NCBI RefSeq assembly: GCF_000150275.1
Contig: NW_002060966.1
Coordinates: forward strand, 462,561-498,649
DNA length: 36,089 nt
Reading direction: 5' to 3'
From: Trichoplax adhaerens
Lineage: Eukaryota > Animalia > Placozoa
Shown piece by piece: positions 1-34,154 of the stretch; the first letter of the stretch is position 1; each line of letters opens with the position of its first letter. The translations under genes and the position numbers were made by a program. The notes below the pieces were generated by a model. The model did not search any database. It was given only the letters and a program-made list of their open reading frames with translations, and was not told where the DNA came from.

Positions 1-595
1 TTATACACGCTTGTAACGAGAAGCAAGCATTTCTCAATCATCAAGAATTTCTTGTATCCGTTAAATTGTCACCTGAATTATTCGCTCAAGGCAAAGTGGT
101 GGGTAAGTTCAACTTTATCAATCAGTTTGAAACGGAAGAGTTTCCTGCTTAAATTTTCTCTTATAAATAACACGAATCACCATATTAAGACTCAGCTAAT
201 CGAAGACAAATAAAGACAGTGCTGTGACAGCCATGATAAATTATCGTAGCAGTCATATTGCAGCGTAATAGTCCTGTACTTATTTAGCCTGTATAGTATT
301 TTATAGTACTTGTATATGCTATTAACAAAAATGCCTAGAAAAAGCTTGGCTATTGCATAATGAACTCTATCTTGATTTAGAAATAGCTATTCTCGAATTT
401 GTGATACAGTAGGGTATCCTGCTTACTTTATAAGAATAGAGAGAGAGACTATAGTGAGTCAAGAGTGATAACAAGTGATGATTTAACCGAATATAACTCT
501 GATTGCTTCATCATGCTTCTTTAACAAATTAGATTTGAAGGATAGGCAAAGCTTTTGGCTCTGACTTGTCCATATTTTATTTATGTAAACGTACA

Positions 596-693
596 ATGTC
601 TCTAATGATTGCAAAATTTATCTATATTGCAGTACCAAAAGTTTCCTTTCAAGAAAAATCTAAATATTCAGCTTTTGATTTAAACAAGATACC
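596..693 (+). CDS. PARP4: PARP4 exon 1 with ATG (MSLMIAKFIYIAVPKVSFQEKSKYSAFDLNKIP), donor GTAAGT at 694
   Basis: ATG at 596 and open frame up to a canonical GTAAGT donor. The peptide resembles the human PARP4 N-terminus (MVMGIFANCIFCLKVKYLPQQQKKKLQTDI). Exon ends in phase 2. Confidence 0.45.
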
Positions 694-1277
694 GTAAGTT
701 CCTATTACTATTTTCCTTTCTGTCTCTGCAAAGTTATTTGCTCATCAAAGCAAATAGTATTCATGAATGAAGTATTCAACTTCTTTTTATATTTGAGATC
801 TTACGTTTCCATTTATTTTTGTTATAAATCTCAAAGTTCTCTGCTCATTGAAGCTAAGCTAAAAGTAAACAAGCGTTAAAACGCAAATTATATCTAAATA
901 GTGAATGACTGATTTACAGTAGTTCTTAAATGTATTCAAGAGTCCAAATTTTCATCTTTTGTTTTATATTATTGACCTTCGAGCTGCATTTATTTGTTAT
1001 ATATCTCCAAAACTCATTTTATCATTTAAGCTAACCAATTACCTAGTAAACCAACCCACAAATAGATTTCATCTCCATAAAAAATGAATAATTAAATATA
1101 ACTCTTGAATGCACTCTAAGACTCCTATTTGGTCATGCAATGCTCAGCTCAGTAATGGACTAAAGTATGCTTCGTAAAATTGGGTTTTCAAATACCTAGT
1201 TCAAGATAAAAGCATCCAGTAAATATAGTAGATATGCTGTATAATTCTTCTCCATTGACTTGGAATGTGGCTATAAG

Positions 1278-1358
1278 CTAAACGTTCATAAAGCCGGTCA
1301 AGTTTTCCCTGATTTTGCCTATCTTGTCAAAGTAGTAAAAGACATGCATTGGAACTCT
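1278..1358 (+). CDS. PARP4: Candidate PARP4 BRCT-region exon (LNVHKAGQVFPDFAYLVKVVKDMHWNS)
   Basis: Open frame matching the human PARP4 BRCT segment KNHVHIANPDFIWKSIREKRLLDVKNY. Boundaries are uncertain (acceptor ataag|, donor |gtagag). Other BRCT exons between 700 and 1700 were not resolved. Confidence 0.3.
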
Positions 1359-1720
1359 GTAGAGCATTTTGAATTATAGAAATTATCACACAACCGTAAT
1401 CATAAGTCCGTAGTAAATTATTGTAACTCAATCCAAATAAATCAAGTATCCAATTTGCAGTTCCGTGCGTGTGCAACACCATTGGTAAATTAATCGAACA
1501 AACCTTTCGCAGCCATCCTTTAGGTTTCATATTTTATTATTAATCTTATAGAGTTTGGACTGACAATGATCGCCATAATGATACCTTTCAAAGCCGGTAT
1601 AAAGTTCTAAAACTAGTGCTATTAAAGGTAAGTTTAAGTGGAGTTACACTAGCCTTAACCTGTAAATTTACATTAATTTTGCATAATAATGGCCCTACTT
1701 TCAATGCTATTCAATTTTAG

Positions 1721-2023
1721 AATGATTCAGGCAGTAAGGAAAAGAAATTTGCTGGCATTGAATTGCAGCAAGGAGAAACTGAAAATTTATCCTTTCGTGT
1801 CTATGTGCATCGTAAGATTATTAAATACGAAAAGGAAGATGAAAACATCAATTTGAGAAATGCTCATTGTCAAGAAATCAAGGAATATCGATATTGTCCA
1901 AATCTTGATCAGGCAATTCAGTTATACTCCCATCTATATAATTTACACACCAAGTCACCGTATCATATGCAGAAATGCTGGACAAGACTTCCAATTTGTA
2001 TTGGTTCAGAAAGAGCAAATGAG
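1721..2023 (+). CDS. PARP4: PARP4 exon, linker between BRCT and regulatory domain (NDSGSKEKKFAGIELQQGETENLSFRVYVH..DQAIQLYSHLYNLHTKSPY..ERANE)
   Basis: Frame opens directly after acceptor tttag|. Position and partial similarity match the human PARP4 segment preceding the regulatory domain. The weak donor gag|gtttat at 2024 is phase-compatible with the next exon. The 5' boundary could instead be 1731. Confidence 0.5.
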
Positions 2024-2454
2024 GTTTATTAATTATTATATACTATGAGCTTTCAATAATTTCAATAGTCCACCCGAATAAAATGTTAATTTGTCAAGTC
2101 TTGATTAAATAGAAATTAAGTTAAACTTCAAAGCACTGCAACGATTACTTGCTAGGCATAAGAAATAAAACTATTTCCTACCCAAACTTATAGCGTAATA
2201 AAAGCCACTACGTCTAAGATAGCGAAAAAAATACAGATGTAACCTTAGATTATGACAGATTTCAATCTTAAAGCTAAAAAAATCACAGTATCTGATAGAG
2301 GATAGCTTAACAATAGGAAAGGATAATAAGAAAAATGAAGCTTTAAAATTGCAGATTCCTGCAAATCATCTAATTCTTTTTCGAACTAGATCATCGTTGC
2401 TGCTATTGTCGATGCATTGTTGATTTTACCTTTCATTTAATCTGATGCTACTAG

Positions 2455-2930
2455 GTTTTAAACTATTTCCAATCTGAAACCACAGACACCATAGTATCTG
2501 AAGATGTTGCTTCGTTAACGCAATGTTTATGGGCAGAAGCCGTAGGAGAATTAGATGAAATATTATCATCATCCGTGGAAGAGATTACGAACGAAAATAT
2601 TGCATCAGCGGAAGGGATTCTCCTCAAATTAAAGACCTGCCTATCCGAAAACCGCTATGATCAAATCAGCAACCTTAGTCAACAATTTTACTCCTTAATT
2701 CCACACAAAAATGATGATAGAACTATTGATTCATTCCGATTAATTAGTGATAAGCAAGATCTTTGTCAATTAATACGGGACATCATTAATGTTAGTGAAT
2801 TAACCGATTGGAAGATGGATAGTAGTATAAATGCCAAGTATAAAGCATTAAAGTGTGATATTCAAAATTTGGAAGAAAACAGCCATGAATTTAAATCCAT
2901 AAAGAATTATACTTTATCATCCTGGAAAGG
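2455..2930 (+). CDS. PARP4: PARP4 exon encoding the PARP regulatory (alpha-helical) domain
   Basis: VLNYFQSETTDTIVSEDVASLTQCLWAEAVGELDEILSS..ASAEGILLKLK..FYSLIPHK..DLCQLIRDIINVSE..AKYKALKCDIQNLEENSHEF aligns nearly motif-for-motif with human PARP4 (IWAEALGHLE..KAEGILLL..FYRLIPHK..DLCQLIRDMVNVCE..AKYRALRCKIEHVEQNTEEF). Acceptor tactag| at 2454, donor GTAAGT at 2931. Confidence 0.88.
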
Positions 2931-3047
2931 GTAAGTTAAAGTTATCTTACTTTACAGTAAATAATGTTCATTACTTATTTGCTAGAAACGGAAATTCCAA
3001 AACACTAAATACTGATTTAAAAAGTCTATAAACTTTTACGATCACAG

Positions 3048-3159
3048 CGAGCCTACAACAATAAAAATTAATAGAATATTTAGCTTAAGTCGGCAGAGCG
3101 AAGAGAGATTATTTACTCTTGACATTGGAAATAAAAAATTACTCTTTCACGCTAGCCAT
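3048..3159 (+). CDS. PARP4: PARP4 catalytic-domain exon (EPTTIKINRIFSLSRQSEERLFTLDIGNKKLLFHASH) containing the H-G-S position
   Basis: Phase-2 junction with the previous exon gives Gly. Aligns to human PVDVLQIFRVGRVNETTEFLSKLGNVRPLLHGS. Donor GTAAGT at 3160. The conserved NAD-site His-Gly-Ser motif reads His-Ala-Ser here. Confidence 0.75.
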
Positions 3160-3207
3160 GTAAGTCCAACTCTAATCTATTGCTAGTCAATGTTGAAACT
3201 GTTTTAG

Positions 3208-3253
3208 AAGATAGCGAAATTGACTTATTCTGGAATTCTATTCTATAATATAG
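3208..3253 (+). CDS. PARP4: PARP4 catalytic-domain exon (KIAKLTYSGILFYNI)
   Basis: Acceptor ttttag|. The phase-1 end completes Gly with the next exon, giving SGILFYNIGLLMPRIVV versus human VGILCRGLLLPKVV. Confidence 0.65.
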
Positions 3254-3447
3254 GTTGCTAACTTTGTTGGGATCCTTTCCAGGTGATCTTAATTTCAATA
3301 AACCTCATAAATTGTTTAAAATCGGTTGCTTAGCTAATTTCCAAGTCGAGTTAATACGAATAGTCAGGAATAGGCAACGATATGACCATTAGTGCTACAG
3401 GTGATGGAATTATGTTTTAATAATCTTTCAATTTATTTTTTGCAGAG

Positions 3448-3544
3448 GTTTATTAATGCCTAGAATTGTCGTTAGCAGTCATGGTGGTAAAAGGTCTGAT
3501 GTTGGTCATCTCGGCAGTGGAATTTATTTTGCTGATTCACTTAA
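3448..3544 (+). CDS. PARP4: PARP4 catalytic-domain exon (GLLMPRIVVSSHGGKRSDVGHLGSGIYFADSL)
   Basis: Matches human GLLLPKVVEDRGVQRTDVGNLGSGIYFSDSL. Contains the catalytic Tyr in the GIYFAD context. Donor aa|gtatgc, phase 2. Confidence 0.8.
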
Positions 3545-3927
3545 GTATGCAAGATTATTATTTTACGACCATAAGATATCCTCTAGTTCCTGTATTTAAT
3601 ACCCTTTAAGAAAATGGAAGTATAAACCCGTGATTTTATTGAATCACTAGCTCTTAACCATTTTCCAATAACAAAGTTTACTAGTGATCAGATTCGCTTT
3701 TTTTCCAATCAAATAGGAAAATTTCCGTTACAATTATAATGTAGGCTTATTATTTCTGATATTAAAGTAGGAAGCATTTGATACTCTCTGAATAGTGACT
3801 ATTGCAATTTTAATTACGATCTTCAACATTTTTATTTGATATTTATTGACAACTTAAATAGCAGTAAAATTAATACTATCAAGCAATGATTATTAACTAT
3901 TCGAATATCTATCTAAATTTGTTTTAG

Positions 3928-4012
3928 CACCAGCTTGCAGTTTACTGATGTTGGGAAAATGTCTGGAAATCGAATGATGATTATTAGTGAAGTTGCTTTA
4001 GGCAAGAGCAAG
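3928..4012 (+). CDS. PARP4: PARP4 catalytic-domain exon (NTSLQFTDVGKMSGNRMMIISEVALGKSK)
   Basis: Acceptor gttttag|, donor GTAAGT at 4013. Matches human STSIKYSHPGETDGTRLLLICDVALGKCMD. Confidence 0.8.
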
Positions 4013-4113
4013 GTAAGTTACGCTATGGGTATAGCAAAATGCTACGACTGTTAAATACTCTATATACAAGCAAGAAAAAATTAACTATTACTAATGTTTT
4101 CTAATTGTAATAG

Positions 4114-4233
4114 GAATATACTAATAAACAGACAGAATTAAAGTCTCCTCCACAAGGTTATGATAGCGTAATTGGAATTGCTGAAACTGAACAACAATCA
4201 TCCATGTATAAGGCAATACTAGCTATTTACGAA
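4114..4233 (+). CDS. PARP4: PARP4 catalytic-domain exon (EYTNKQTELKSPPQGYDSVIGIAETEQQSSMYKAILAIYE)
   Basis: Matches human FSLTEAPPGYDSVHGVSQTASV. The donor gaa|gtactt was chosen because it is phase-compatible. The alternative donor at|gtataag at 4206 is not. Confidence 0.65.
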
Positions 4234-4298
4234 GTACTTGGCGTTATAATCACCTTATCAATATCGAAATTTATTCGACTTATAACTTTTAATTGCAG

Positions 4299-4342
4299 AA
4301 TAACGAATATGCTATATTTGATGAAAAGCAACAAAAACTCAG
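4299..4342 (+). CDS. PARP4: PARP4 catalytic-domain exon (NNEYAIFDEKQQKL) with catalytic Glu
   Basis: Matches the PARP signature YNEYIVYD and human EDDEFVVYKTNQVK. Acceptor ttgcag|, donor ag|gtaatt. Confidence 0.7.
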
Positions 4343-4410
4343 GTAATTCTTTATGCGTATATCAATCTATGCTTTAAAGTAATATTAACTAGGTTAAAAT
4401 TTCTTTTCAG

Positions 4411-4529
4411 ATATTTAGTCGAATTCAACTTAGCTAGCGATCCGAAAACGACATCAACGTTAAAATTAAATTATCCGGAAACTTTGCAAGATCAGCCTGC
4501 GCCTTCGCATCTGTTTCTTGATAATTCAG
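4411..4529 (+). CDS. PARP4: PARP4 exon (RYLVEFNLASDPKTTSTLKLNYPETLQDQPAPSHLFLDNS)
   Basis: Completes the QQKLR codon in phase. YLVEFNL matches human YIIKFSM at the end of the catalytic domain. Donor cag|gtcaat. Confidence 0.7.
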
Positions 4530-4624
4530 GTCAATATTAATATTGTAGCAATATAGAGAATCGATTTCATAGCAGGATACAACTTATAAGTGTTCAATTC
4601 CTATATTCATACCGTCAACCTTAG

Positions 4625-4761
4625 CCGAAATTGATATAACCAAGCTACTAAATGGGACAGCCAAAAGAGTCAGTGAAGCTGGATTAAAGACTTCAAATGA
4701 TATTTCCATACCATTAACAGACGTTCATTTCAGAGCTAAATTATTGGATTTAGCCGCAGAG
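4625..4761 (+). CDS. PARP4: PARP4 exon (AEIDITKLLNGTAKRVSEAGLKTSNDISIPLTDVHFRAKLLDLAAE)
   Basis: Phase-matched acceptor ccttag|. Aligns with human KVEDYQLPDAKTSSSTKAGLQDASGNLVPLEDVHIKGRIIDTVAQ. Donor gag|gtagac. Confidence 0.7.
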
Positions 4762-5054
4762 GTAGACATAATTTACACTGTGAAAGGGTACTAAGAGTAT
4801 GAATTAGGATAGAGAGTATATATTTTAATGGCCTTTGTTATAATAAAATAGTTAATTTAGAATTCCCATTATAGTGTAAATTGCATATAACTTTATTAAG
4901 AGCTAAATTCGTTCTGAAGAGATCGAATTTAAACTGAGATATCGATGATGGCAATTGACTAACGATTATTTAGTGCCAATGCTGATATTCTAAATTTCAT
5001 TAAAAATTGATTTATTAGTGACCTTGACTAATTATTCTGCTAATTTATTTATAG

Positions 5055-5139
5055 GTGGTGGTATTACAATGCTATTTTAACAAATCATCACAACCAATTG
5101 AAGCAAAATATGTATTTCCTCTGGATGATAGAGCAGCAG
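5055..5139 (+). CDS. PARP4: PARP4 exon (VVVLQCYFNKSSQPIEAKYVFPLDDRAA)
   Basis: Matches human VIVFQTYTNKSHVPIEAKYIFPLDDKAA. Acceptor tttatag|, donor g|gtaatt. Confidence 0.82.
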
Positions 5140-5461
5140 GTAATTCATGAATATTAATTACGATAGTTTGTAATTTGAGGTTTATGGGTGATAGGTAAAG
5201 CTCACTTGCATGAGGTCTACCAGGCTATAATTACGGAGGAAAATGAAGCATTTCGCACAGCTAATATTAAACATAAACTGAGTGCTTAATTGTATTTTGC
5301 AATTAAAAGTATACAAATTTCTATTACTGTGCAGTTAGCTAAAGTATAATTGGCTAGTATGAGCAGTAATAAAGAAAAAAAATGATATCGAAGATTATTT
5401 TTTGATTGTTTGACGAGCTGAAATGCCCATATGTAGTACTAATTTTATTCCATCCCTACAG

Positions 5462-5595
5462 TATGTGGGTTTGAAGCCTTTATCAATAACAAACATATTA
5501 TTGGCCAAGTCAAAGAAAAAGAGAAAGCGCATAAAGAATATGAAGCTGCTGTAGCTAGAAAAGATGGAGCTTACCTAATGGACGAAGAATCACCA
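5462..5595 (+). CDS. PARP4: PARP4 exon (VCGFEAFINNKHIIGQVKEKEKAHKEYEAAVARKDGAYLMDEESP)
   Basis: Matches human VCGFEAFINGKHIVGEIKEKEEAQQEYLEAVTQGHGAYLMSQDAPD almost residue for residue. Acceptor ctacag|, donor cca|gtatga. Confidence 0.85.
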
Positions 5596-5826
5596 GTATG
5601 AACTTTCAAACACAACATAGCTACTATTTCATTAATGAAAATCATTTCAACTTTTTACGTATTTAATGAGAGCGGTTGCGGTAATTTCCTGTCTACAATA
5701 AGTTTATGTTAACATACGAGTATATAAGTTAATAACCACAGGCAATATTAGCCATCTTTTGAAATTCACTTCCTTTCAATGCATAGAAAGTTAAGCAGTA
5801 TTGCTTTATATTTACCATTTCTTTAG

Positions 5827-5991
5827 GATATTTTTACTGTCAGCGTTGGGAATTTACCTCCTAATTCTAAAGTATTAATCAAAATAACTTATGTCACCGA
5901 GTTGTCTATGGAAGGTGACTGTTTCGACTTTTTCCTGCCATCTAATCTGGCTCCGTGGAAAAAACAAGAAGCACTATCCAATGTAACCCAG
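5827..5991 (+). CDS. PARP4: PARP4 exon encoding the VIT domain core (DIFTVSVGNLPPNSKVLIKITYVTELSMEGDCFDFFLPSNLAPWKKQEALSNVTQ)
   Basis: Matches human VFTVSVGNLPPKAKVLIKITYITELSILGTVGVFFMPATVAPWQQDKALNENLQ. Acceptor ctttag|, donor cag|gtttgc. Confidence 0.88.
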
Positions 5992-6071
5992 GTTTGCGTA
6001 GAATTTTTACTTTCATCGCTAGACATATGGTTAATTAGTATCTAACTACTGAAATTTAAAATCTCATTTAG

Positions 6072-6112
6072 GATGCAGTGAGTACGGTCAAGATTAACGA
6101 AGTCAAATCAGT
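6072..6112 (+). CDS. PARP4: PARP4 VIT-region exon (DAVSTVKINEVKS, ends phase 2)
   Basis: Matches human DTVEKICIKEIGTKQS. Donor gt|GTAAGG, so that the next exon completes a Val codon. Confidence 0.6.
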
Positions 6113-6386
6113 GTAAGGCAAAAACTTTAAGAAATGATACTTTTATTATTGAGTAGAGTACATAGCAATAAATATAGTCGGATTATAAAGTTAAAATGCA
6201 ATAGTTATTTTACTAAATAATACCTTCTTGGACGGTGTACTGGTAATTTAAGCGCCAGCGAGATTTTAAAAGCCTGACAGTAATTTGCTAGCTATCGTTT
6301 ATAGAGAATAAGATCCCCTATCTTGCAATTATTTTACTGCACTCGAGGGTTTATGTGCTTGATTATTTCATCATTATTGATAATAG

Positions 6387-6468
6387 CAATGCAACGGTTC
6401 AGGTTCGAGTTGAAATGCCGTTCGAAATTAGATCGATTAGCTCGCCAACACATCAAATTAGACAAAAA
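6387..6468 (+). CDS. PARP4: PARP4 VIT-region exon (VNATVQVRVEMPFEIRSISSPTHQIRQK)
   Basis: Matches human FSLTMSIEMPYVIEFIFSDTHELKQK. Acceptor taatag|, donor aaa|gtaagc. Confidence 0.7.
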
Positions 6469-6535
6469 GTAAGCAATTCATTCTTTATCCAATAAAAATA
6501 AATAAAACGAGATAACGAAGCAATAATATTTACAG

Positions 6536-6670
6536 ACGACTGCTACTAAAGCTGTGGTGGAAACTGGACAAATGACAAAGTTCGATAATGGATTTCGATT
6601 ATTAATACGATTAGCGGAAATTCACGTACCAAGAATGTGGGTTGAAAAATATCCAGATACTGATAGCCAG
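6536..6670 (+). CDS. PARP4: PARP4 exon (TTATKAVVETGQMTKFDNGFRLLIRLAEIHVPRMWVEKYPDTDSQ)
   Basis: Matches human GFSLHIGLSAAYLPRMWVEKHPEKESE. Acceptor tttacag|, donor cag|gtcagt. Confidence 0.82.
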
Positions 6671-7069
6671 GTCAGTTGTTTCTATTCTATCTCGAAGTCA
6701 GTGCGAGAAAATAAGGATAGAAGTGCTTAAATAATTCATAGTCATTCTTAGTAATGGCCAATATTGATAGAGAAGATACCCAGTCAGGCTTTGCCGTTTA
6801 GTATAATTGTACGCGAGATATAATATCGAATAATTTAATATTAAATTCGATGGTCTTAAACTATCTTCAAATTCTGATTCAATGAGTATAGTAGAATCAA
6901 ATTAAACCGGTTTTGTTCAGTATAACCGCACATAAATGTCAAATAATTTAACTATATAATCTTGATAGTATTAAATGCTATTTAATAGTCTAATATTTAT
7001 TGAACCGTTATAATACAGATGCATCTTTATGTGTACCTCTAGGCATGCATGTTAACTTTCTATCCAGAG

Positions 7070-7135
7070 TTTGATGTAACAGAAAATCCTCGACCAGAAA
7101 TTATCATAGCTCTAGATATGTCAAATTCCATGAAG
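7070..7135 (+). CDS. PARP4: PARP4 vWA-domain exon with MIDAS-type motif (FDVTENPRPEIIIALDMSNSMK)
   Basis: The D-x-S-x-S metal-ion-dependent adhesion site motif starts the vWA domain. Matches human DVDLPDLASESEVIICLDCSSSME. Donor aag|gtgccg. Confidence 0.8.
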
Positions 7136-7628
7136 GTGCCGTTATTACATCTATGAATTAGTTATAAAGTTTGTTTGATTACCAACATTCTATTCTATGT
7201 TGATACGTCATAAAAAAGAAATTTCAATTAGGCAAGAGCCGTTATTGCCCGTAATCGTAGACAAGCAGTTGTAACCACGATCGTTCCTCTAGTCTAGAAA
7301 TGAAGTAATTAAAATATGAGTTAAAATGAGAAATATAAGATAATTAATAAACACTGTATAATGAATAGATCCAATAATATCTCCTAGTATATTCTTAACT
7401 AATATAGAATTGACATACATCACATTATCAACGCAGTATAATTAATATATGTAGATGCAAGATTACAGTAACGACATAAAAGAATATTTCTTTAAGATTC
7501 TTTTAGTCTACTTTAGTAGTAAAGAAATCGGAACAACGATATTTCCAAATGCCATCATCTATATTTCGAAAAGCTTTATTTATGTCTTATTTTACTACTA
7601 AGCCCAATAATTCTATCAATAACTGTAG

Positions 7629-7719
7629 CAATGCTTAATGGATACCCAGAAGATTGCAGCTTTAATCTTGACGAATCTTCCTCCAGAGTGTCGATTTAAT
7701 ATTGTTGTATTTGGTTCAG
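7629..7719 (+). CDS. PARP4: PARP4 vWA exon (QCLMDTQKIAALILTNLPPECRFNIVVFGS)
   Basis: Matches human LQAKQIALHALSLVGEKQKVNIIQFGTG. Acceptor ctgtag|, donor cag|gtaaat. Confidence 0.75.
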
Positions 7720-7802
7720 GTAAATGCAACCAAATTACTGTTGCACAAAGTAAATCTAAAAAAATTGACATAAGTTAAATCGTGTCTTGATTGTTTTCTT
7801 AG

Positions 7803-7876
7803 CACATAACGAGCTATTCCCGATGTACCAAGAAGTGAGTAAAGAATCGGTTAATATGGCAATAAAATTTATCGGA
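7803..7876 (+). CDS. PARP4: PARP4 vWA exon (AHNELFPMYQEVSKESVNMAIKFIG)
   Basis: Matches human GYKELFSYPKHITSNTMAAEFIMSA. Donor gga|GTAAGT. Confidence 0.75.
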
Positions 7877-8033
7877 GTAAGTAGATAATAAATCTGGAAA
7901 ATAAATATTCATAGTAGTGTTTAAAAAATTCATAGATAAAGGATTAGAGCTAATAGATTTACGATTCTAGTACATGACTATTGCCTTGAGAAGCTACAAT
8001 CATCAGTTAACATAATTATTTTATGATTTATAG

Positions 8034-8233
8034 TCCTTGTCGGCGTCTTGGGGAAATAGCAATTTTTACCACGTTATCGATAATTTTACGCATATCGTTA
8101 AAGAACTAAAAGCCAATTCCGTTTCTAACGTATTCTTAATTTCCGATGGACATTTTGGCGATGAAAATTCCATTACTGCCATTTTAAGGCGTGATAAAAT
8201 AGACAATTTGAGATTATTTACCTTTTCTACTGG
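8034..8233 (+). CDS. PARP4: PARP4 vWA exon (SLSASWGNSNFYHVIDNFTHIVKELKANSVSNVFLISDGHFGDENSITAILRRDKIDNLRLFTFSTG)
   Basis: Corresponds to ORF-track entry 8037-8288 (the exon begins at acceptor 8034, three nucleotides upstream of the ORF's first start codon). Matches human TPTMGNTDFWKTL..RNILLVSDGHLQDESLTLQLVKRSRPHTRLFACGIGST. Phase-2 donor gg|gtcagt joins the next exon. Confidence 0.85.
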
Positions 8234-8373
8234 GTCAGTAGTATTTTTAATATTTCTGATACTCGATTTTATGAACCAAGTCATTTAATATTAATGATAA
8301 TCCAATAAGATCTGATATAAAGAAGAATCCGCATAATCGGTTTGCTAATTTATCTTCTCTACGCATACAATAG

Positions 8374-8473
8374 AGATACGAGTAATCGTTATTTTATGCG
8401 TACTTTGGCGAAAATTGGAGCTGGCTATCATGAACACTTCGATACAAAATTTAGATCCAAATGGCAACAAAAG
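8374..8473 (+). CDS. PARP4: PARP4 vWA exon (DTSNRYFMRTLAKIGAGYHEHFDTKFRSKWQQK)
   Basis: Matches human STANRHVLRILSQCGAGVFEYFNAKSKHSWRKQ. Acceptor caatag|, donor aag|gttcaa. Confidence 0.8.
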
Positions 8474-8593
8474 GTTCAAAAATCGTCGTATAATGAGTGA
8501 TTGAAGGGATAAAATATATTCTGGCCTAATATATTTAAAATTTATCCTTTGTTTATACTATTTCACGTGTTATATCTAATCTAACCTAATTAG

Positions 8594-8689
8594 ATACAAA
8601 ATCAAATTTATAAAGCTTCTCAACCAACATTAACATCAGTAGCTGTCCACTGGCAGCAATTTGATGATAATCCTCAACAACTTATGCAG
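8594..8689 (+). CDS. PARP4: PARP4 exon (IQNQIYKASQPTLTSVAVHWQQFDDNPQQLMQ)
   Basis: Matches human IEDQMTRLCSPSCHSVSVKWQQLNPDVPEALQ. Donor cag|gtgatt. Confidence 0.8.
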
Positions 8690-8862
8690 GTGATTATAGT
8701 CAAATTCTGTATACATTCAGTGAATCTATCGGCTGCTAGAATTGAATAAATCTTCAAATTTAGCTCCTTGGGTATCGATATAAGAGAAGATTTAACACTA
8801 TTACTTCAATAAAATAAATTACCTTTGATTGCAGACAATATTTTAATTTTCTTTTACAATAG

Positions 8863-8937
8863 GCTCCCGCTGATATCGTTAGTTTGTTTAATGGATCAAG
8901 ACAAGTTATATATGGTTTTGTTTCCAATTGTACGCAG
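8863..8937 (+). CDS. PARP4: PARP4 exon (APADIVSLFNGSRQVIYGFVSNCTQ)
   Basis: Matches human APAQVPSLFLNDRLLVYGFIPHCTQ. Acceptor caatag|, donor cag|gttagg. Confidence 0.78.
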
Positions 8938-9029
8938 GTTAGGAAATAGAATCTTTATCTCACGAGCATTTGTAATTTTTGTAATGATCCTGTTAGTATT
9001 TTATGACATGAATTATGCCTGATTAATAG

Positions 9030-9110
9030 GCTACTTTGGAAGCCAGCATTGGTGAAATCCAAATTTCTACTGTCGTATCTACATCCGAATTGTGTATCAC
9101 AACAGGAAGG
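9030..9110 (+). CDS. PARP4: PARP4 exon (ATLEASIGEIQISTVVSTSELCITTGR)
   Basis: Matches human ATLCALIQEKEFRTMVSTTELQKTTG. Acceptor taatag|. The donor position is uncertain by one codon. Confidence 0.7.
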
Positions 9111-9440
9111 GTGGGTCTTAATAAAATTAAAACTTGGGTTTCACGCAATAGTTATCCTTAGGTTGAAATGGAGACTTTAGCTTAGTCGTTGTTCGATTTT
9201 CAGGCTTCTATTCATAATTACATTAGTAAATGTCATTTTACACATTAATTGATTGGTGCATTGACTGTAATAGAGCAAATAACGTTTAATCTAAGTATTG
9301 GTAATTGGTAAATGAGGAGATAGATTTGCAAATAATGTAGAAAATATTAAAAACATGATATTGGCACTTTAACTGTGTCATATTTAAATTCGATTTTTGA
9401 AATCTATTTTAAACCTTAAATTTACTATCAATATCACTAG

Positions 9441-9521
9441 ATTCTACATCAATTGACAGCGCGAGCTCTAATTCGTGATTACGACGACGGAGTCTATAAT
9501 ATAAAGCGCACCACCCATGAG
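9441..9521 (+). CDS. PARP4: PARP4 exon (ILHQLTARALIRDYDDGVYNIKRTTHE)
   Basis: Matches human MIHKLAARALIRDYEDGILHENETSHE. Donor gag|gtagct. Confidence 0.82.
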
Positions 9522-9611
9522 GTAGCTATCAAAAATATCAAAATGGGAACGCAGTGTAATCTATATTATAGATAATTAGATATTATGAATAACCGCTATG
9601 ACGATGTACAG

Positions 9612-9713
9612 GCTTTTAAAATAGATCGGAAAGAAGATATCATTAAAATAAGCCAACGCTATTCTATTGTCAGCCCATTTACGAGTTTCGTAGCCATTGA
9701 AGATCGTAGCCAG
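9612..9713 (+). CDS. PARP4: PARP4 exon (AFKIDRKEDIIKISQRYSIVSPFTSFVAIEDRSQ)
   Basis: Matches human LKSLIIKLSKENSLITQFTSFVAVEKRDE. Acceptor tgtacag|, donor cag|gtagca. Confidence 0.75.
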
Positions 9714-9802
9714 GTAGCATAAATGAGATATCTTGTCGCAGAGATTAAAATAAACAGCAGATTTATTTATTAAATGTAAATATAATTTACACTTTCGTAC
9801 AG

Positions 9803-9898
9803 GACCAAAGTGACCGAAGAGAATCCTTCGATTTAAGTAAATTAATAAGACTTGAAGACATCGATGATCTATCTTATGTGGGTTGGAGAGGAAAGACG
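9803..9898 (+). CDS. PARP4: PARP4 exon (DQSDRRESFDLSKLIRLEDIDDLSYVGWRGKT)
   Basis: Matches human SPFPDIPKVSELIAKEDVDFLPYMSWQGE. Acceptor cgtacag|, donor acg|gtaagg. Confidence 0.72.
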
Positions 9899-10365
9899 GT
9901 AAGGCGATCCTATAATTGGCAGTACTAATTTCAACGTTAGCTAAATGGACACGGTAATTATTTTGTTATTCTAGCAGTAGTTGTATTTACATCCAAAAGA
10001 CGGAAGTAAAATAGAACACCGATTGCTCTTAAATTTCTATATTAAAACTTATCTATCATTTAAGTAGTAAACTATTTAAAGTAAATTAGCTAGATTCGAA
10101 TTATTCCAGCAAGCTTGTACTTCCAATGCTTTTAATCCACTGTCAACAAAGTATCAGTAACCCTAGCAATCAATTCTATATCGCATACTCAATATTGATA
10201 TGTTACTATGGGTATAAAATTTGCTTCGGTATGGTAGCTTTTGTATCTAGTTTATAGTTTTAATAATTTGCGATCTCTAATATGACGATCATGTTCTATT
10301 CCATTGGCAATATCAGTTATCCATTTACTTACTTGAATGGTAACTTTGTTTCATGTATCGGCCAG

Positions 10366-10726
10366 GAAGACGATAATAAAGATAGTATGATATCTGGTAA
10401 AAAATCTGGAATTGGAGATTCACGACAATCTTCCAGAACGAGAGAAAATGTGATTCGGTGTTATACTCCAAGTTCATTCCCTTCAAGCTGTGCAAGTACG
10501 TCATCGGATGAATTCTCTACAAATAGCGAATCAAACTATTCTATAATATCGGAAACGGAATTACCGGAGTTTTCCGATCCTGAGGTTACCATTGATGTTA
10601 TCAATAAAGATGCGGAAGAGGAAGATGAAATTGAAGAAGAAGAAGCAGCATATTGCTGTGGAATAGATGAAGATGAAGAAAATGATGATGATTTATGTAA
10701 TGAATATATATTAGAGGCGAAAGAAG
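10366..10726 (+). CDS. PARP4: PARP4 acidic low-complexity exon (EDDNKDSMISGKKSG..SDEFSTNSESNYSIISETELPEFSDPEVT..EEEDEIEEEEAAYCCGIDEDEENDDDLCNEYILEAKEG). 3' end not fixed
   Basis: Part of ORF-track entry 10282-10836. Phase-0 acceptor ggccag| at 10365. Candidate donors at 10397, 10496, 10697, 10727 and 10772 are all phase 1, the same phase required by the Pro-rich exon at 12594. The acidic composition resembles the acidic stretch of the vPARP C-terminal region. Confidence 0.5.
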
Positions 10727-11738
10727 GTACTAGGATCGTATCAGATGATTTTAATGGTCTACTTTTAGGAAGTAATCAATGGATAAATAATAATTCTAAT
10801 ACTTCAATACATGAGAATAGATTAATAAAAAACTAGCCTTACCTTAGTAACTAATTTTGGCTGGATTTGAAATTAATATAAATCATTATAAAGTACCGTT
10901 ATCACTTAAAAGTTTGAATTCCTTGCTTAAACATTAAATTTGATTAATGACATCTATCGAGCCAGATGAGTGTGAACCAGAAATTTGCAAGGCATTTTCA
11001 AGTAAAGCAATTGATGACAGCGAAGAAGGGGAAATGCTTGCTTTACCTAAAAAGGTTTTTCATTGCTTAAACTAGAGCATTATTTAGCCATGATGAGATT
11101 ATTTACCAATAGAGCAATTTACAACTTGGTAATATAGATATATTGTCCGTTTTTCTTCCCTACGTATAGCATTTAATGCGATTTACATTAATGTATTCAA
11201 TGCTATTCATTATTCTAATTCTCACTCAAATATGAACTTCTGATTAATCATTAGTACAATATGCATAATTATGAGACGATAACAATATTAAGCTCATTAT
11301 TTAAAATTACAATGATAATTACAGGTAGTACAGCATTGATTCTTATAGTTTTAAGTTATAGCCCTCTTAGTAAAGGCAAAAATCGTCAACTTACTACAAG
11401 TTCATTTTTAATTTCATTCTGCTTTTACAATAACAATGAATCTTTAAAGTTGCCTTCATAGCATTACGTAACAAAAAACACCTTATAGAACTTGTTTAGC
11501 AATTTCATTGCTCCATCTTATTTCATTTTTAGAAAGAATTTTACGCGGCTGCAGGTAAACATTTCAAAATTATACCCACCATGAAGAAGAAAGCCTTATC
11601 CAAAAAAAAAATGGACAGGAGTAATCATAACTTCATACTAGCTGATTCGATCTATAGAACTCAAGGCATCATTAGCTTATTCTAGTCTGTCAGGTAAAAT
11701 TTATTTTATATAAGAAAATCTTTTTATTCGTTTAAAAG

Positions 11739-11827
11739 GGACAGAAAAGGTCCTTGACGATCAATTTGGGAACTTTTATGATCCATCGACCTCATCAAAG
11801 CACCTTTCAACTCGAACGTCTGAGAAG
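11739..11827 (+). CDS. Candidate small exon (TEKVLDDQFGNFYDPSTSSKHLSTRTSEK) with strong donor GTGAGC. Membership in PARP4 unresolved
   Basis: Open frame bounded by tttaaaag| and aag|GTGAGC. No clear homology, and its phase does not chain simply into the 12594 exon. Confidence 0.25.
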
Positions 11828-12593
11828 GTGAGCAATTACTCTTACTGAGTATAAAAATTAGGTTTGGACATGCTTGAGGAGTAAATTATCGATACAAATT
11901 CAATTTCCGTCTTTAGCTTGAAAGAGCAATAGTAGGTAGTTCTGAAAACTTCTCCATGGAAGAACAGACGTATACGGCAGAAATAAAAGATGAGAGAACG
12001 CAAAGTAAACAGTAAATCTATCTATGAAATTTCAAATGATATTCAATATGTATATATAGTATATATCTATCAGATAGAAACTGTCTATTAATCGTTATTT
12101 TTATATTTCCAATAAATTAAGAACTATCTATAGGTATGAAGCAGACTAGAGGTGCATTAGATTCTTCTATAGAAGCAATTTCATCATTTAATTCAAATTC
12201 TCCACGTACTGCTCAAGATGGCCTTCAAGCAGGGGTTAGTAAAACTTAAAGTGTATTCAAACAGCTTCAGAATTTGAATTTTGCTCTGGGAAGTCATCAT
12301 CCATTATATTATATTTGCTTTTTATCAGCAGAAATTAATTCGGAAGTTTAGAAGCCTAGCTACTCTCAGAAGAATGGAGGAGTCAAGTAATAATATAATT
12401 GAATTTTACTTATTAAGGCGATATTTTGCGTAGAATAACTAAGCTGGCAGTTTCATTTTTGGATAGAAAATGAGCTTTAATAACTTGTATGCATTTATAT
12501 ATCTATGCTATGTTCAATTTACACTCGCACAATAGATTAAGGTATTTTATTTAACTGAAATAGCTTAAAAAATTAAAATCATGTTATATACAG

Positions 12594-13202
12594 CTATCCC
12601 ACCTCCTCCGTCATCTTTAGGACCCACACCGACTTTAAGATCTCAACATTTTCGGATAAGTAAAAGTCGGATAGCTTCAGGACCTCCGCCAGCACAAGCA
12701 TCTCAACCATGTCCACCTCCTCCACTTCCAGGATCTTCAGCATCTGAGCTATTCCCGCCTCTTTCATATTCACAATCTAAGACTAATGAAGAACTATTAG
12801 TTCAACAAATACACAAGCCTAAACCAAGTTCGTCTATTGAAATAAACAAGCACAAGGCGAAGATAGAATATCAATACGCTAGTATGAATGGAGCTAAGGA
12901 GGATATTGTAGAAATAGAACCTAACAGGGCGGCTAAACTTGGTTCACTGGCAACTTCTGCTAAGGCCTTAAAAGGATTCTTACGTGTCGGGAGACAAACT
13001 AATAGCTTTCTATCTAGAACTAACTTTAATTCTTTAGGCGCAAGTGCTGATGATCATTCTAATTTAGCTAAGGAGGAAACATTAGACGATGATAAGAAGG
13101 TAGAATACAGGCAAATGAAATTCAGAAAATCTAAAGCGCTAGCAAAAAAGTACAAATCTGCGAATACTAAAGACAATCTTGTTGATGAGCCTGAAAATCC
13201 AA
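12594..13202 (+). CDS. PARP4: PARP4 Pro-rich low-complexity exon (IPPPPSSLGPTPTLRS..GPPPAQASQPCPPPPLPG..KFRKSKALAKKYKSANTKDNLVDEPENP)
   Basis: Part of ORF-track entry 12581-13213. Phase-1 acceptor tatacag| at 12593, phase-1 donor a|GTAAGA at 13203. Pro-rich composition parallels the human vPARP Pro-rich region. The 5' boundary is inferred from phase only. Confidence 0.55.
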
Positions 13203-13351
13203 GTAAGAATTAAATTGCAATATAATCAATTTATTAATAATTTACCCGCACTAAATTATGTTCTAATAGCCAGTAAGTTAATCTAAGAAAGAGTTTGTAG
13301 ATAAATTATATTAGTCGAGAAATTAATCCTAATCGTTTTAATTATTCATAG

Positions 13352-13410
13352 AGGAAATGAAAAATTTGACCTATATAAATTGCAGGGAATTGATGATGTT
13401 TCAAGTATCG
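13352..13410 (+). CDS. PARP4: PARP4 C-terminal exon (KEMKNLTYINCRELMMFQVS)
   Basis: Joins 13202 and 13573 in phase. ELMMFQVS|DGYWEV parallels human ELLSLQTEDGFWKL. Acceptor ttcatag|, donor tcg|gtacga. Confidence 0.6.
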
Positions 13411-13572
13411 GTACGAAATAATTTAATATAATAAAGTCATGATTAGAACATAGACTTACACTATCGATATAAGGAATCTTTTTAAAGATACACTAACGAT
13501 AAGCTGTTTTTTATAGCTGCCGATGTTTAGTATAACAGGATATCGTAAACTGATATTTCTTAATATTTAAAG

Positions 13573-13672
13573 GATGGTTATTGGGAAGTAACACCGGAAA
13601 TAGCTGCAATAATAAGAATATCTGTGGAAAAGTTATTTAGATTACTAACTGAAGCTGGAATTTATTCATTGG
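13573..13672 (+). CDS. PARP4: PARP4 C-terminal exon (DGYWEVTPEIAAIIRISVEKLFRLLTEAGIYSLG)
   Basis: Matches human EDGFWKLTPELGLILNLNTNGLHSFLKQKGIQSLG. Acceptor tttaaag|, donor g|gtaaaa. Confidence 0.82.
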
Positions 13673-13785
13673 GTAAAATCGAATTAATCTACAGTAGTAC
13701 TTTCAATACTATCATGCCATTGTAACTGATACTTTTATACCATGTAAAGTTTGTTCTAATATTTAATTTTATTCACTTTATTTAG

Positions 13786-13988
13786 GCTCTAAAGCTTGTA
13801 AAGATATTGTTCGTATGGTATTTACCAAGATTGTAATCGTTATTCTTGGAAAGATTGCACAGTTGCAGGAGTCACTAGCACGTGCTACGAAATGGCTGGT
13901 ATTCATGGATAAAAAATATCCATCGCTGCTATATCGTTTTGAATTAGGATCAAATTGGGAATGTGTGGCTAGAAAATGCCAGCTTTAG
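13786..13988 (+). CDS. PARP4: PARP4 terminal exon with stop codon (GSKACKDIVRMVFTKIVIVILGKIAQLQESLARATKWLVFMDKKYPSLLYRFELGSNWECVARKCQL*)
   Basis: Matches the human PARP4 C-terminus (ECLLDLIATMLVLQFIRTRLEKEG..ASEWVRRTEGQYPSICPRLELGNDWDSATKQL). TAG stop at 13986-13988. AATAAA at about 14439 is a possible polyadenylation signal. Confidence 0.82.
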
Positions 13989-16974
13989 GAAATTACATGA
14001 TTTTGACTACGGATGATTCCATACGGTAAAAGAGCTAAAGAATACACTTTAAATTTTTCCTTAATTCACAAAGCGATACGTCTGCTTTATTCTATCGTCG
14101 TTTATTTAATGTTTTATCTCTAACCAAAATGTGATAGGTATGTAAAAACTTTGCTTACTATGTCGGCCAAGTTTACTGGTATTTTTAATTTTATATTCTA
14201 TAACTAATCTCATGTCCAAAGTTTTGGCTATGGACTCCTATGATATGCTATAACACAGCAAGTAGATTCAGTTCTGCGTACAATTTTACATTTGAAATGT
14301 ATTACTATAAAACTAATTACGACTTCAGGCCATAAAACTGTATTATCTGCTTGATGCGAATTGATCAAATCATTTCCAAATATATCAATTTGCGACCATA
14401 ATACATCAATAATTTTGAAGGAAGTTTAATTTATTTGTAATAAATTGGTGTTATAAATCTTTGAAATAATTTTTGGGAGTATAATTGATAGAGCTGATGT
14501 CACTTTTCGGTATATTATACTTTTGGGCCTAAATTTTATATTTCAGAACATATTGAGTTTATGCATACTCGTATAATAAACAATTTAATATTTTGGTCTA
14601 TTTAAGCTGTAAAAACAAAAGCAAAAGCAAAAGCATGTATTCAATGCAGGGAGTTGGTTCGCATTGCAAGGTGACTTCTTGCTCTTTCTTACCTATGAAG
14701 TCGCGCTTTCGTTACAAGTTATGACTTAATATGGCCAATGAAGTTGCCACTAAATACTGATTCTCTCCTTAGAGCATTAAAATAGTTATTATCCAGTGTT
14801 ATATCACTTGCTAATAATATTCTTTGCCTTATGCTTACGAGATTCATAGAAGCAAGAACAAGTTAATAATCTCATGATTTCTGATATACACCAAAATTCA
14901 TTGAAAGGCTACTACACCTAAATTTATGTTTACCAATAGAGCGTCTGATAGATCAATACAAGGAAGTATATGTAATGACTAGCGCGTATTTCCTCTTCAT
15001 AAAGAAAATAGATAGTTATAATTGTTGTACTTATCAATATAGTGTATTTTGCTTTAGCTTTAGCTAGAGAAGATACGCATTATTACTAAGAGACCAATTA
15101 AATTTATTTTTATGTCAATTATTTTTGAGATAGAATATTGTTTGTAATCATAGATGTTATTTTGTTAGGATTATCGCAGCAGTCAATGTTAACGAACATT
15201 AAACTTTAGTCCTGTACACTATTGACGACTTGGAAATTCTCGAACTCTATAGTAATCACATTATGCAACTTATTTAATATGGGAATCAAAAGCTGCTGAT
15301 GATTGAACTGTGTCTTGGACATTTATAGTTACTAAATTTAAAAGGCTAAAACTTTAGTATAATTGGATAATTATATCCTTAATTTACATTAGGCGCAGTT
15401 TAATCAAAAGTATAAAAGGAGAGGTAGTAGCTAAAAATATTAATTTGACTTACCTATTCTTGAAGACTGAACTAGGAAATGCGAGTCTAACTCGTAAGTT
15501 CTTTTATTATACGCAAGCAACTATTATTGGTGTTTGGTGGTGATTGAGGCTAGATGCTGTGTCTTAGCCCGTAATGTTATTCGCTATACTTTTATTAATG
15601 CTTGATGGAGACTTAGTCTAGGCGCTACGTGTTAGACTTACAAGTTTTAAATTTCTATTTTCTTCTAAAATATTTTGTTTGAATGCTTCACGGTTGCTTT
15701 GATTGAATCATTTAATAATTTGCTTTATTGCCTCTATCAATTAAGTATTTTATAGAATTACTCACAATAATATTTAGTCTTAGCACCTACTGACATGCAC
15801 GCCTACAGTACATATTAGTGTTAGGTAGAGTACGATTTTAAGCCTACCGAGAGTTATACACTGCTAGGTTAGAGAATATCTGTCTTTTGAGATAGAGAGG
15901 TTTTAGCTTATAGCGGCTTCAAATAAAGAATTGCAATAATATCAAATTTATTTAATAGCAATGCTGATATCAATATCGGTAGGATAATACATTACAGTAC
16001 TGTACTAGTAATTGAACTAATTGTTCACTATGGGGTAATAGACTCTTAAAAATCATGAATATCAACTTTAATTAATAGAACTGCAGGTTTGTATTCAAAT
16101 TGAGAATTATATTGCTAGTATCTGCCTCTTCGACAATCTGCTCATTGTAACAACTCTATCAAGAGCCACCTTTATCTGATCATCATCTAAGATCTTTAAT
16201 TTTATTTAGTTGCTAGTCCTATATTTAATAAATATCTTTAATTAGGCCGTAAATGAGGCTATATCCGAAAATTTGATTAATATTCTCGATCGGTTTTTTG
16301 AAATTTCAAATAAATATTACAATCTAAGTACCTCTGTATTCACGGCCAGATAACTTTACTGAATCATTAATAAAATACCATCATTATTTAGCTATAGAAA
16401 CGTTAATTAGAGAAATTACTAGACTAAGTTAAATTACAGTAATGTCAGAACAAAAATGAAATTTCTATCCTACTGTATGTTAATAAATTTTTATGGCTAT
16501 TAAAAAGAACGACTTATCCCAAGAACTTTGATTCGTTACAACTACTATTCTTATATAATTAAGTAATCACTGTCTACGAATAATTTAACGTTATGTCTGA
16601 GTATTATTGTACTGTATATGTACTTCGAATAATAAGATACGTAACTCGTATAAATACATAATTCAATAATTAAATGCTTAGAAAAATTTGCAACTTAACA
16701 TGATGCATTATATTTGCAAGGTTAGCGCATTGAGAACGTCAATTAAAATATTAAATTGGTAGTACTTGTATTGCATTTGATTTAAGAATTCTCGGCCTAG
16801 TGTTAATTAATTAATTTCATTGGCAAAATGTCTATTATAGCTATATACGGGTACTAAAAATAAAATTTATCTTAGTTTAAATTTTATAGTAAGATTATCT
16901 AGAACATTTAGACGTCAAACTCTTCATAAATGATATGCACTAGAGTGTTGGAGCGTAATAGAAGCAAATTGCCA

Positions 16975-17191
16975 CGCATTTAGGCTTTTACTGGACTCAC
17001 ATTCAGAATTTGAAAAAGAAACTCCATTTAGTGTCGCCTGCCAATGCCAAGCCATGCCTTATAAATTGACCTCTGATCAATCAAAGACATTTACAGTAGA
17101 AATTTTAATCGATGTACCGCTCAAGCACCATCTATATTCGGTTGCAGAGAAGCTACGTGCAGCAGTACTCAAAGATGCAAATAGAAGCTAA
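16975..17191 (+). pseudogene. Degenerate death-domain exon copy (..AFTGLTFRI / EFEKETPFSVACQCQAMPYKLTSDQSKTFTVEILIDVPLKHHLYSVAEKLRAAVLKDANRS*), frameshifted
   Basis: Paralogous to the DD exons at 21.2 and 26.2 kb (the FEKxxPFSV..QC..M....TVEIL....L...L.SVAEKL pattern). Relative to those copies it has a 1-nt deletion near 17008 (cagaatttgaaaaa versus cagaaatttgaaaaa) that splits the domain across two frames. Confidence 0.45.
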
Positions 17192-31128: not shown

Positions 31129-31288
31129 GTAAGATATTTCATGTCTCTAGTTTGGATCTACCAGTGTTCCAAGGTAATACTGACCGAATTATCAATATAG
31201 TTTGCAGTGCCATGATGTAGGTTATTACATTATTATTTTTCCTAGTATTAGAGAAAATTTGCATAACCTATATTCATATTCCTAATAG

Positions 31289-34068: not shown

Positions 34069-34154
34069 GTTAGTAGGCAATTAAATCAATCGAAATTAGA
34101 AGGTCAGTATAACTATTATAAAATGATAGTAGCATTTCCTACAAAATACAACAG

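Follow-up and report, generated by a model that had tools for sequence, protein, structure and literature searches.

A vault PARP (PARP4) gene of Trichoplax adhaerens, one of two placozoan copies, with its 5' end beyond the edge of the analysed window

Introduction

The closest described systems are human PARP4 (vPARP), for which structures are available (PDB 11jf, 9bw6 and 9bw7; catalytic domain 8sx1 and 8swy), and a deposited placozoan protein. Human PARP4 begins with a BRCT domain and continues, further along, with a helical domain (HD), an ADP-ribosyltransferase (ART) fold, a VIT domain, a von Willebrand A (vWA) domain, a linker and the MVP-interaction (MINT) domain. The boundaries of MINT (human residues 1562-1724) and its contact residues S1614, K1618 and R1689 have been defined (PMC12280208), and PARP4-specific active-site residues, namely T484 in place of PARP1 K903, plus K516, N471 and D545, have been tied to mono-ADP-ribosylation (PMC10711553). 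Mouse vaults form without vPARP (PMC2964712), and the presence of PARP4 is therefore no proof of vault function.

In placozoans, PARP4 and its duplication in T. adhaerens were published in 2014 (PMC4245714), and the genome of T. adhaerens is reported to contain a gene for major vault protein, MVP (PMC2655684); we found no report in the literature of vault particles seen in a placozoan. The protein RDD38355.1 of Trichoplax sp. H2, deposited as "Poly [ADP-ribose] polymerase 4", has 1857 aa and comes from an evidence-based Maker model of 42 exons. The published genome-wide identity of H1 and H2 is 99.1% (PMC6057997). Here we describe a window of 36,089 nucleotides from T. adhaerens (contig NW_002060966.1, positions 462,561 to 498,649). 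We conclude, with a probability of roughly 0.92, that its first 14 kb hold the counterpart of RDD38355.1, a vault PARP (PARP4) gene that is one of a placozoan pair, is cut in coding exon 2 at the left edge and has the canonical metazoan PARP4 layout.

Results

Exon coordinates were obtained by spliced protein-to-genome alignment of RDD38355.1 to the window. Within the window the gene runs from 3 to 13988 on the + strand, which also carries all features given below. It consists there of 41 coding exons, the first of them partial, whose product corresponds to residues 77-1857 of RDD38355.1. Exons 1-10 in the window lie at 3-102, 633-693, 1552-1627, 1721-2023, 2455-2930, 3048-3159, 3254-3282, 3446-3544, 3928-4012 and 4114-4233; exons 11-20 at 4299-4342, 4411-4529, 4625-4761, 5055-5139, 5462-5595, 5827-5991, 6072-6112, 6387-6468, 6536-6670 and 7043-7135; exons 21-30 at 7629-7719, 7803-7876, 8034-8233, 8374-8473, 8594-8689, 8863-8937, 9030-9110, 9441-9521, 9612-9713 and 9803-9898; and exons 31-41 at 10366-10726, 10966-11054, 11533-11620, 11739-11827, 11917-12004, 12122-12234, 12332-12386, 12594-13202, 13352-13410, 13573-13672 and 13786-13988. 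All 40 introns are GT-AG, and the joined exons give a single frame of 5346 nt (1781 residues, no internal stops) that closes at a TAG at 13986-13988. Median sizes are 96 nt for exons and 145 nt for introns. An initial annotation, built by hand from the sequence, had proposed more than 30 short exons, in agreement with the 40 coding exons found at 633-13988 (41 with 3-102). It had also supposed that its gene structure probably differed from any automated model; instead, the H2 Maker model fits the window with the same 26 core exons and 24 substitutions over 1781 residues. Those 26 exons, covering 2455-9898, were derived independently from the T. adhaerens paralogue and from mollusc and rat proteins. 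The linker exons (10366-13410) are based on the H2 Maker model, and an ab initio chain differed in detail there.

Comparison with H2 contig NOWV01000181.1 showed 99.33% DNA identity over 23,987 nt, and the window product matched the H2 protein (E = 0, 3623 bits) far better than chance would allow. Over the whole part of the gene that lies in the window, which excludes exon 1 and 97 nt of exon 2, the two loci have the same exon-intron structure. Exonic substitutions number 34 and amino-acid differences 24 in 1781 residues; 16 of these differences fall in the linker, and the 1165 domain residues carry 7. Exons are less substituted than introns (0.64% against 0.97%), and indels number 0 in exons and 12 in introns. 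The nonsynonymous to synonymous ratio of 24:9 gives no clear constraint signal at such shallow divergence.

The 5' end differs from what had been proposed. The gene had been called complete, with a start codon at 596, but further upstream, at 3-102 and outside the range first annotated, the window retains the 3' portion of coding exon 2, which the edge interrupts. This portion codes for the last part of BRCT and the first part of the spacer behind it. Its translation is 100% identical to RDD38355.1 residues 77-110, a donor GT follows at 103-104, and Mytilus PARP4 residues 80-111 (the end of BRCT and beyond) align to it. At the H2 locus, exon 2 spans window coordinates -96 to 102. Most of BRCT is encoded by exon 1 together with the opening 97 nt of exon 2; both precede window position 1, and residues 1-76 of the orthologue correspond to sequence 97-1829 nt upstream of that position. 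In the H2 protein, which is 98.7% identical, BRCT occupies residues 2-92 (PF00533, E 5e-8; PF16589, E 1.1e-7) and is encoded upstream of position 1. The domain therefore belongs to the PARP4 gene but sits outside the window, which retains just its last residues, within 3-50. The window thus cuts 76 codons from the 5' end of the gene.

Could the gene nevertheless be complete, or a BRCT-less isoform arise from a promoter in the intron, with translation from ATG 596 reading MSLMIAKFIYIAV into exon 633-693? The ATG is in frame with that exon, though only by read-through of the acceptor site, and segment 539-694 is the fourth-best, correctly ordered match to an N-terminal PARP4 profile; that match, however, is not significant (E 0.57, the value also given by a BRCT profile for 596-632). 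The proposed start codon and first 12 codons (596-632) are the last 37 nt of intron 103-632, a pyrimidine/AT-rich tract ending in CAG, as is typical of acceptors (TTTATCTATATTGCAG, then TACC at the exon start, with AG at 631-632). The evidence-based H2 model joins 102 to 633, the protein of exon 3-102 is fully conserved in H2 and homologous to the BRCT end of mollusc PARP4, and BRCT stands at the N-terminus of PARP4 proteins from sponges to mammals. We consider a start at 596 very unlikely; the exon begins at 633.

A Pfam scan of the spliced product, which is numbered here from the window edge, returned the domain order that had been described, each domain above its gathering score. The PARP regulatory (helical) domain (2578-2808, residues 222-298; PF02877, E 7.6e-9, 36.2 bits against a cut-off of 26.8) lies directly N-terminal to the ART fold. 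The PARP catalytic (ART) domain is spread over 8 exons (2881-4429, residues 323-508; PF00644, E 6e-31) and is followed by VIT (4714-5892, residues 572-682; PF08487, E 1.3e-36, full profile 1-111) and vWA (7097-8596, residues 820-988; PF13768, E 1.9e-17; PF00092, E 9.7e-11). The D-x-S-x-S MIDAS motif noted earlier was found as DMSNS at 7115-7129, with the distal Asp in LISDG (motif start 8136) and Ser at the MIDAS Thr position (GNSNF, human GNTDF). A lineage-specific linker rich in S (13%), E (10.5%) and K (9.7%) occupies 10369-13383 (residues 1166-1672), and its acidic and Pro-rich character, also described before, resides in runs at 10609-10692 and 12596-12733. It had no Pfam match, did not significantly resemble the linkers of PARP4 proteins from outside the placozoans, and is fast-evolving and disordered. 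A WGR region was not detectable by sequence in the window protein. From N- to C-terminus the full protein would carry BRCT (most of it encoded beyond the window), an intervening stretch, HD and ART, VIT, vWA, the linker and MINT.

The product was collinear with human PARP4 as had been claimed (PDB 11jf_P, 1724 aa, E 3e-246, 823 bits), human residues 251-1219 being aligned at 785 bits. Alignment places the H-Y-E triad at H373 (3148-3150), Y413 (3525-3527) and E490 (4305-4307), with a 7-residue insertion relative to human ahead of the catalytic Glu (MYKAILAIYE). Human T484 corresponds to T420 (codon start 3929) and K516 is conserved, while N471 is replaced by H and D545 by N. The H-Y-E active site would use NAD+ and probably add single ADP-ribose units rather than chains. 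Mono-ADP-ribosylation by Trichoplax PARP4 appears probable because the Thr that replaces PARP1 K903 and the Lys matching human K516 are retained; the substitutions at N471 and D545 mean, however, that catalytic output could differ from that of the human enzyme.

The C-terminal tail, previously noted as conserved, is by sequence a MINT-like (MVP-interaction) domain encoded by 3 exons (13384-13973, residues 1673-1777). When a 136-residue tail was compared by phmmer with all 177,635 PDB sequences, human PARP4 was the sole significant match (E 2.4e-10, to residues 1574-1636 and 1665-1701), and the tail also matches the C-termini of vertebrate PARP4 proteins. About 30 residues of human MINT (1637-1664) are without a Trichoplax counterpart, and the human linker is unrelated in sequence to that of Trichoplax. 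Equivalents of the MVP-contact residues S1614 (codon start 13666), K1618 (13791) and R1689 (13935) are kept. The tail would dock Trichoplax PARP4 on repeat domains 3-5 of MVP, inside the vault shell.

The second Trichoplax copy is represented by H2 RDD38342.1 (1755 aa), which corresponds to the partial T. adhaerens TRIADDRAFT_32651 and lies on the same 160-kb H2 contig, beyond the window. It shares the domain architecture, BRCT and a MINT-like tail included, and is 60.6% identical to the window copy in residues 1-1240 (48% in the tail), but its linker is unrelated, and its K1618 equivalent is Ala (IQSFGLAAY) although the S and R equivalents are retained. The window gene had been termed a PARP4 ortholog; it is a PARP4/vPARP gene, but because Trichoplax has two PARP4 copies it is properly a co-orthologue.

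A duplicated gene might also be a pseudogene or be losing function, and the existence of a paralogue, the 24:9 ratio and the concentration of changes in the linker would fit such decay of the window copy. We regard it as most improbable: the reading frame runs without stop or frameshift through canonical introns, indels relative to H2 are confined to introns, the domains have barely changed, and the catalytic triad, MIDAS and MVP-contact residues are intact, including the K1618 equivalent that the paralogue has lost.

Other PDB families scored far below PARP4 (PARP2 and PARP1 about 73 bits, ITIH4 54 bits). Among the matches listed, the named non-placozoan ones were PARP4 or PARP4-like, and the others were unnamed or uncharacterised proteins with the same Pfam domain set. 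Membership of the PARP1/2/3 clade was rejected: similarity to PARP1-3 is confined to HD-ART (about 66-73 bits), and ART is not C-terminal in the window protein, being followed by about 1270 more residues that include VIT and vWA. ITIH proteins have the VIT and vWA tandem in common (ITIH4, PDB 9c4f, query residues 657-1213) but are without PARP, BRCT or MINT; this family was rejected as well, PARP_reg and PARP lying on the same frame as VIT-vWA. That three adjacent genes were misjoined, one for a PARP, one ITIH-like with VIT/vWA and one, unrelated, for the C-terminal part, has next to no probability. In favour of it are a linker (10.4-13.4 kb) without homologues beyond the placozoans, linker exons taken from the H2 model, and a detectable relationship of ITIH4 to the VIT-vWA part. 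Against it, PARP, VIT, vWA and MINT follow in the same order within a single chain in animals ranging from sponges to mammals, the solved human protein among them; exon phases are compatible along the whole gene; the tail is homologous specifically to the PARP4 C-terminus; and no start codon or signal-peptide-like exon occurs where an ITIH-like gene would begin.

Discussion

The window gene is an ordinary and already known one, deposited as PARP4 for Trichoplax sp. H2, and its significance is small beyond correct annotation. The lesson lies at the 5' end, where a hand-built model read an intronic in-frame ATG as the start of a complete gene although the real 5' end was outside the window.

With an MVP gene reported in the genome, it is plausible that Trichoplax makes vaults. 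A tentative and rather unlikely reading is that the two linked placozoan copies have split an ancestral role, in which case the window copy, the one of the two that keeps all three contacts (S, K and R), would be the resident vault enzyme, and the paralogue, with Ala at K1618, would bind MVP weakly or not at all and work outside vaults. Conservation in a placozoan of the MINT tail and of three experimentally defined MVP-contact residues suggests that the vault-PARP4 docking mode is older than the placozoan-vertebrate split. Trichoplax is a small, early-branching animal for testing the role of PARP4 in vaults and, if the role split were true, would offer a naturally occurring separation of function through which to approach what PARP4 does.

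Gene structure

The flagged region of the AT-rich window (G+C ~32%) contains no long prokaryote-style ORFs on its forward strand, which carries short open segments with unmistakable PARP, VIT and vWA motifs. A protein search with these segments roughly joined returned hundreds of PARP4 proteins; among the matches listed, which extended to proteins of at most ~1.75 times the query length and did not include P0121, the best was P0001 (TRIADDRAFT_32651), a partial T. adhaerens protein (60% identity). Exons were mapped with a purpose-written spliced protein-to-genome aligner using BLOSUM62, GT-AG introns only and all three intron phases. Spliced alignments of P0001, two mollusc proteins, one gastropod protein and rat PARP4 yielded an identical set of 26 exons (2455-9898) whose splice sites are canonical and which join into an open frame of 2952 nt. 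When the search was repeated with a draft protein of 1758 residues, it retrieved P0121 (RDD38355.1), the PARP4 protein of Trichoplax sp. H2, at 3623 bits. Spliced alignment of this protein to the window gave 41 exons at 3-13988; over 1781 residues the alignment is ungapped and contains 24 substitutions. Each of the 40 introns is GT-AG, and the 5346-nt coding frame is open and ends with TAG at 13986-13988 (median exon 96 nt, median intron 145 nt). That several genes were wrongly joined is unlikely, and the initial annotation was correct in describing many short exons in one gene: the 41 exons in the window form a single open frame. The H2 gene set is an evidence-based Maker prediction with RNA-seq (Kamm et al., PMC6057997). 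Window positions 1-23987 share 99.33% DNA identity with the H2 locus (L001); across whole genomes, T. adhaerens H1 and H2 are 99.1% identical (Kamm et al., PMC6057997). The window sequence thus belongs to T. adhaerens or to a relative just as close to H2.

Several alternative structures were rejected. An ab initio exon chain, built with codon and splice models learned from the 26 core exons, was dropped in favour of homology; it missed the conserved tail exon 13573-13672, used a false donor at 13962 and so ran past the true stop, called a false start at 1109, and its extension was unreliable toward both gene ends. An alternative splice, 9555/9637, for the exon pair around 9441-9713 was rejected on its scores (3.3 and -6.3 bits vs 8.4 and 7.0) and on the H2 model. 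For exon 4114-4233, a donor at 4205 was considered and rejected because no acceptor lies in a compatible frame.

The 5' end of the gene

The H2 gene comprises 42 coding exons, with exon 1 at window coordinates -1829 to -1701 and exon 2 at -96 to 102. The left edge of the window thus falls inside exon 2, so that the first 76 codons, encoding most of a BRCT domain (residues 2-92 of P0121 in Pfam), lie upstream. Consistent with this location of the BRCT exons, neither a profile of 73 PARP4 N-termini nor low-penalty spliced alignment of 40 homologues revealed consistent BRCT exons inside the window. Exon 3-102, which was absent from the hand-built model, has independent support, as the final part of the BRCT domain of Mytilus PARP4 aligns there.

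The initial annotation described a complete gene starting at 596. Neither claim held, because exon 2 is truncated (exon 1 and 97 nt of exon 2 lie beyond the left edge), the ATG at 596 is intronic, and a supported exon precedes it. This ATG sits in the last 37 nt of intron 103-632 (sequence TTTATCTATATTGCAG up to the boundary, then TACC), and is in frame with exon 633-693 solely by reading through the acceptor. The in-frame run through the acceptor (596-632, forward strand) is what misled the hand-built model. It is also conceivable that translation starts at ATG 596, or that an internal promoter drives a BRCT-less isoform; both are unlikely, and nothing supports the isoform.

Domain architecture and catalytic site

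The window gene is a PARP4 in identity and architecture. A Pfam scan of the spliced protein (numbered here over its 1781 residues) identified, all above gathering score, PARP_reg at residues 222-298 (E 7.6e-9), the PARP catalytic domain at 323-508 (E 6e-31), VIT at 572-682 (E 1.3e-36) and VWA at 820-988 (E 1.9e-17 and 9.7e-11), confirming the regulatory, catalytic, VIT, vWA order that had been proposed. Full-length human PARP4 was by far the best PDB match (E 3e-246, 823 bits); PARP2 and PARP1 reached ~73 bits and ITIH4 54 bits. The D-x-S-x-S MIDAS predicted for the vWA domain is present as DMSNS (7115-7129), with Ser in place of Thr and an Asp within LISDG.

The catalytic triad H-Y-E is intact (H373, Y413, E490). 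Frigon and Pascal (PMC10711553) describe a set of residues by which human PARP4 loses a working acceptor site and is confined to mono-ADP-ribosylation; of these, the equivalents of T484 and K516 are kept, whereas N471 is replaced by H and D545 by N in the window protein. Just before the strand bearing the catalytic Glu, an insertion of 5-7 residues (MYKAILAIYE; 4204-4233, forward strand), bounded by a weak donor, GTACTT, distinguishes the window copy from its paralogue and from other animals; the H2 model has it too.

Linker and C-terminal tail

Residues 1166-1672 form a linker rich in S, E and K, with the acidic (10609-10692) and Pro-rich (12596-12733) runs that had been noted from the sequence. 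It has no Pfam matches, and no similarity to the PARP4 linkers of other animals was detectable with phmmer. In sponge, cnidarian, lancelet and oyster PARP4 (P0122, P0125, P0136, P0140, P0155), Pfam gives significant matches, in comparable places within the linker, to parts of abundant cytosolic proteins. They cover the last ~95 residues of 14-3-3 (around residues 1252-1347), the first ~60 of actin and, in oyster, part of the Hsp70 substrate-binding domain. Attachment of 14-3-3 has been published before (PMC4245714); no earlier account of actin or Hsp70 pieces in PARP4 linkers was found. Unlike these linkers, that of Trichoplax shows no 14-3-3, actin or Hsp70 pieces, and searches for 14-3-3 or actin remnants (Pfam; phmmer against other PARP4 proteins) gave nothing significant.

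The last ~105 residues are conserved. Against 177,635 PDB sequences, the 136-residue tail had human PARP4 as its only significant match (E 2.4e-10), aligning with human residues 1574-1636 and 1665-1701, and vertebrate PARP4 proteins also matched it at their very C-terminal ends, in agreement with the conserved tail of the initial annotation. Judging from these alignments, the tail is the MINT domain (human 1562-1724). Human PARP4 contacts MVP through S1614, K1618 and R1689 (2025 cryo-EM study, PMC12280208), and all three are kept, as S1713, K1717 and R1765.

Duplication and constraint

The vPARP clade was defined in animals and Amoebozoa by Citarelli et al. (PMC2964712), and PARP4 duplication in Trichoplax is published (PMC4245714). 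A cluster look-up found the second H2 copy, RDD38342.1 (P0237; full-length, 1755 aa), outside the window, on a contig equal in length to that of the first copy and assigned to NOWV01000181.1; its T. adhaerens counterpart is TRIADDRAFT_32651. Identity between the two copies is 60.6% for residues 1-1240 and 48% for the tail. In the MINT-like tail of P0237 the equivalents of S1614 and R1689 are kept, but that of K1618 is Ala.

With two copies, the window gene might be a decaying duplicate, which we consider unlikely. Relative to H2, substitutions amount to 0.64% in its exons and 0.97% in its introns; the introns carry 12 indels and the exons none. Nonsynonymous and synonymous changes number 24 and 9, with 16 of the 24 in the linker. 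This comparison, which has low power, fits a gene that is functional and whose linker evolves fast.

Remainder of the window and flanking H2 genes

Scanning the entire window for Rfam families, tRNAs and tandem repeats gave no matches; the introns therefore hold neither a vault-RNA-like gene nor an RNA gene of any other known kind. Downstream of PARP4, three similar open segments on the forward strand, which follow one another at intervals of ~4-5 kb, resemble a tandem array of Death-domain genes (Pfam Death: 26143-26358, E 6e-8; 21172-21399, E 0.0026; 16934-17188, no match). In the H2 locus, the 10 kb that follow PARP4 have no listed gene call, despite the Death-domain exons there. Further along the same strand, a 358-codon segment with an internal ATG (29055-30128) encodes tetratricopeptide repeats (TPR_12 E 1.8e-31, four stretches; a weaker match is the NPHP3 TPR domain) and presumably belongs to another gene. 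Beyond it lie a 972-codon low-complexity segment rich in S, N, K and Q (31267-34182, forward strand), very A-rich on that strand (AT skew 0.245 in 32-34 kb), and a 325-codon segment (34730-35704, forward strand); neither has a Pfam match. Upstream of PARP4, the H2 locus carries a 7tm_1 receptor (L001 332-1468, forward) and a cytochrome P450 (5723-7201, reverse).

Function

The PARP4 gene is real, already known and incomplete in the window; the last two points make the finding one of low interest. The gene is most likely an ordinary, functional vault PARP. We infer docking, activity and expression of its product: the MINT tail would dock PARP4 inside an MVP shell, the VIT, vWA and BRCT domains would serve as interaction modules, and the H-Y-E active site, probably mono-ADP-ribosylating, would have vault components or cargo as its substrates.
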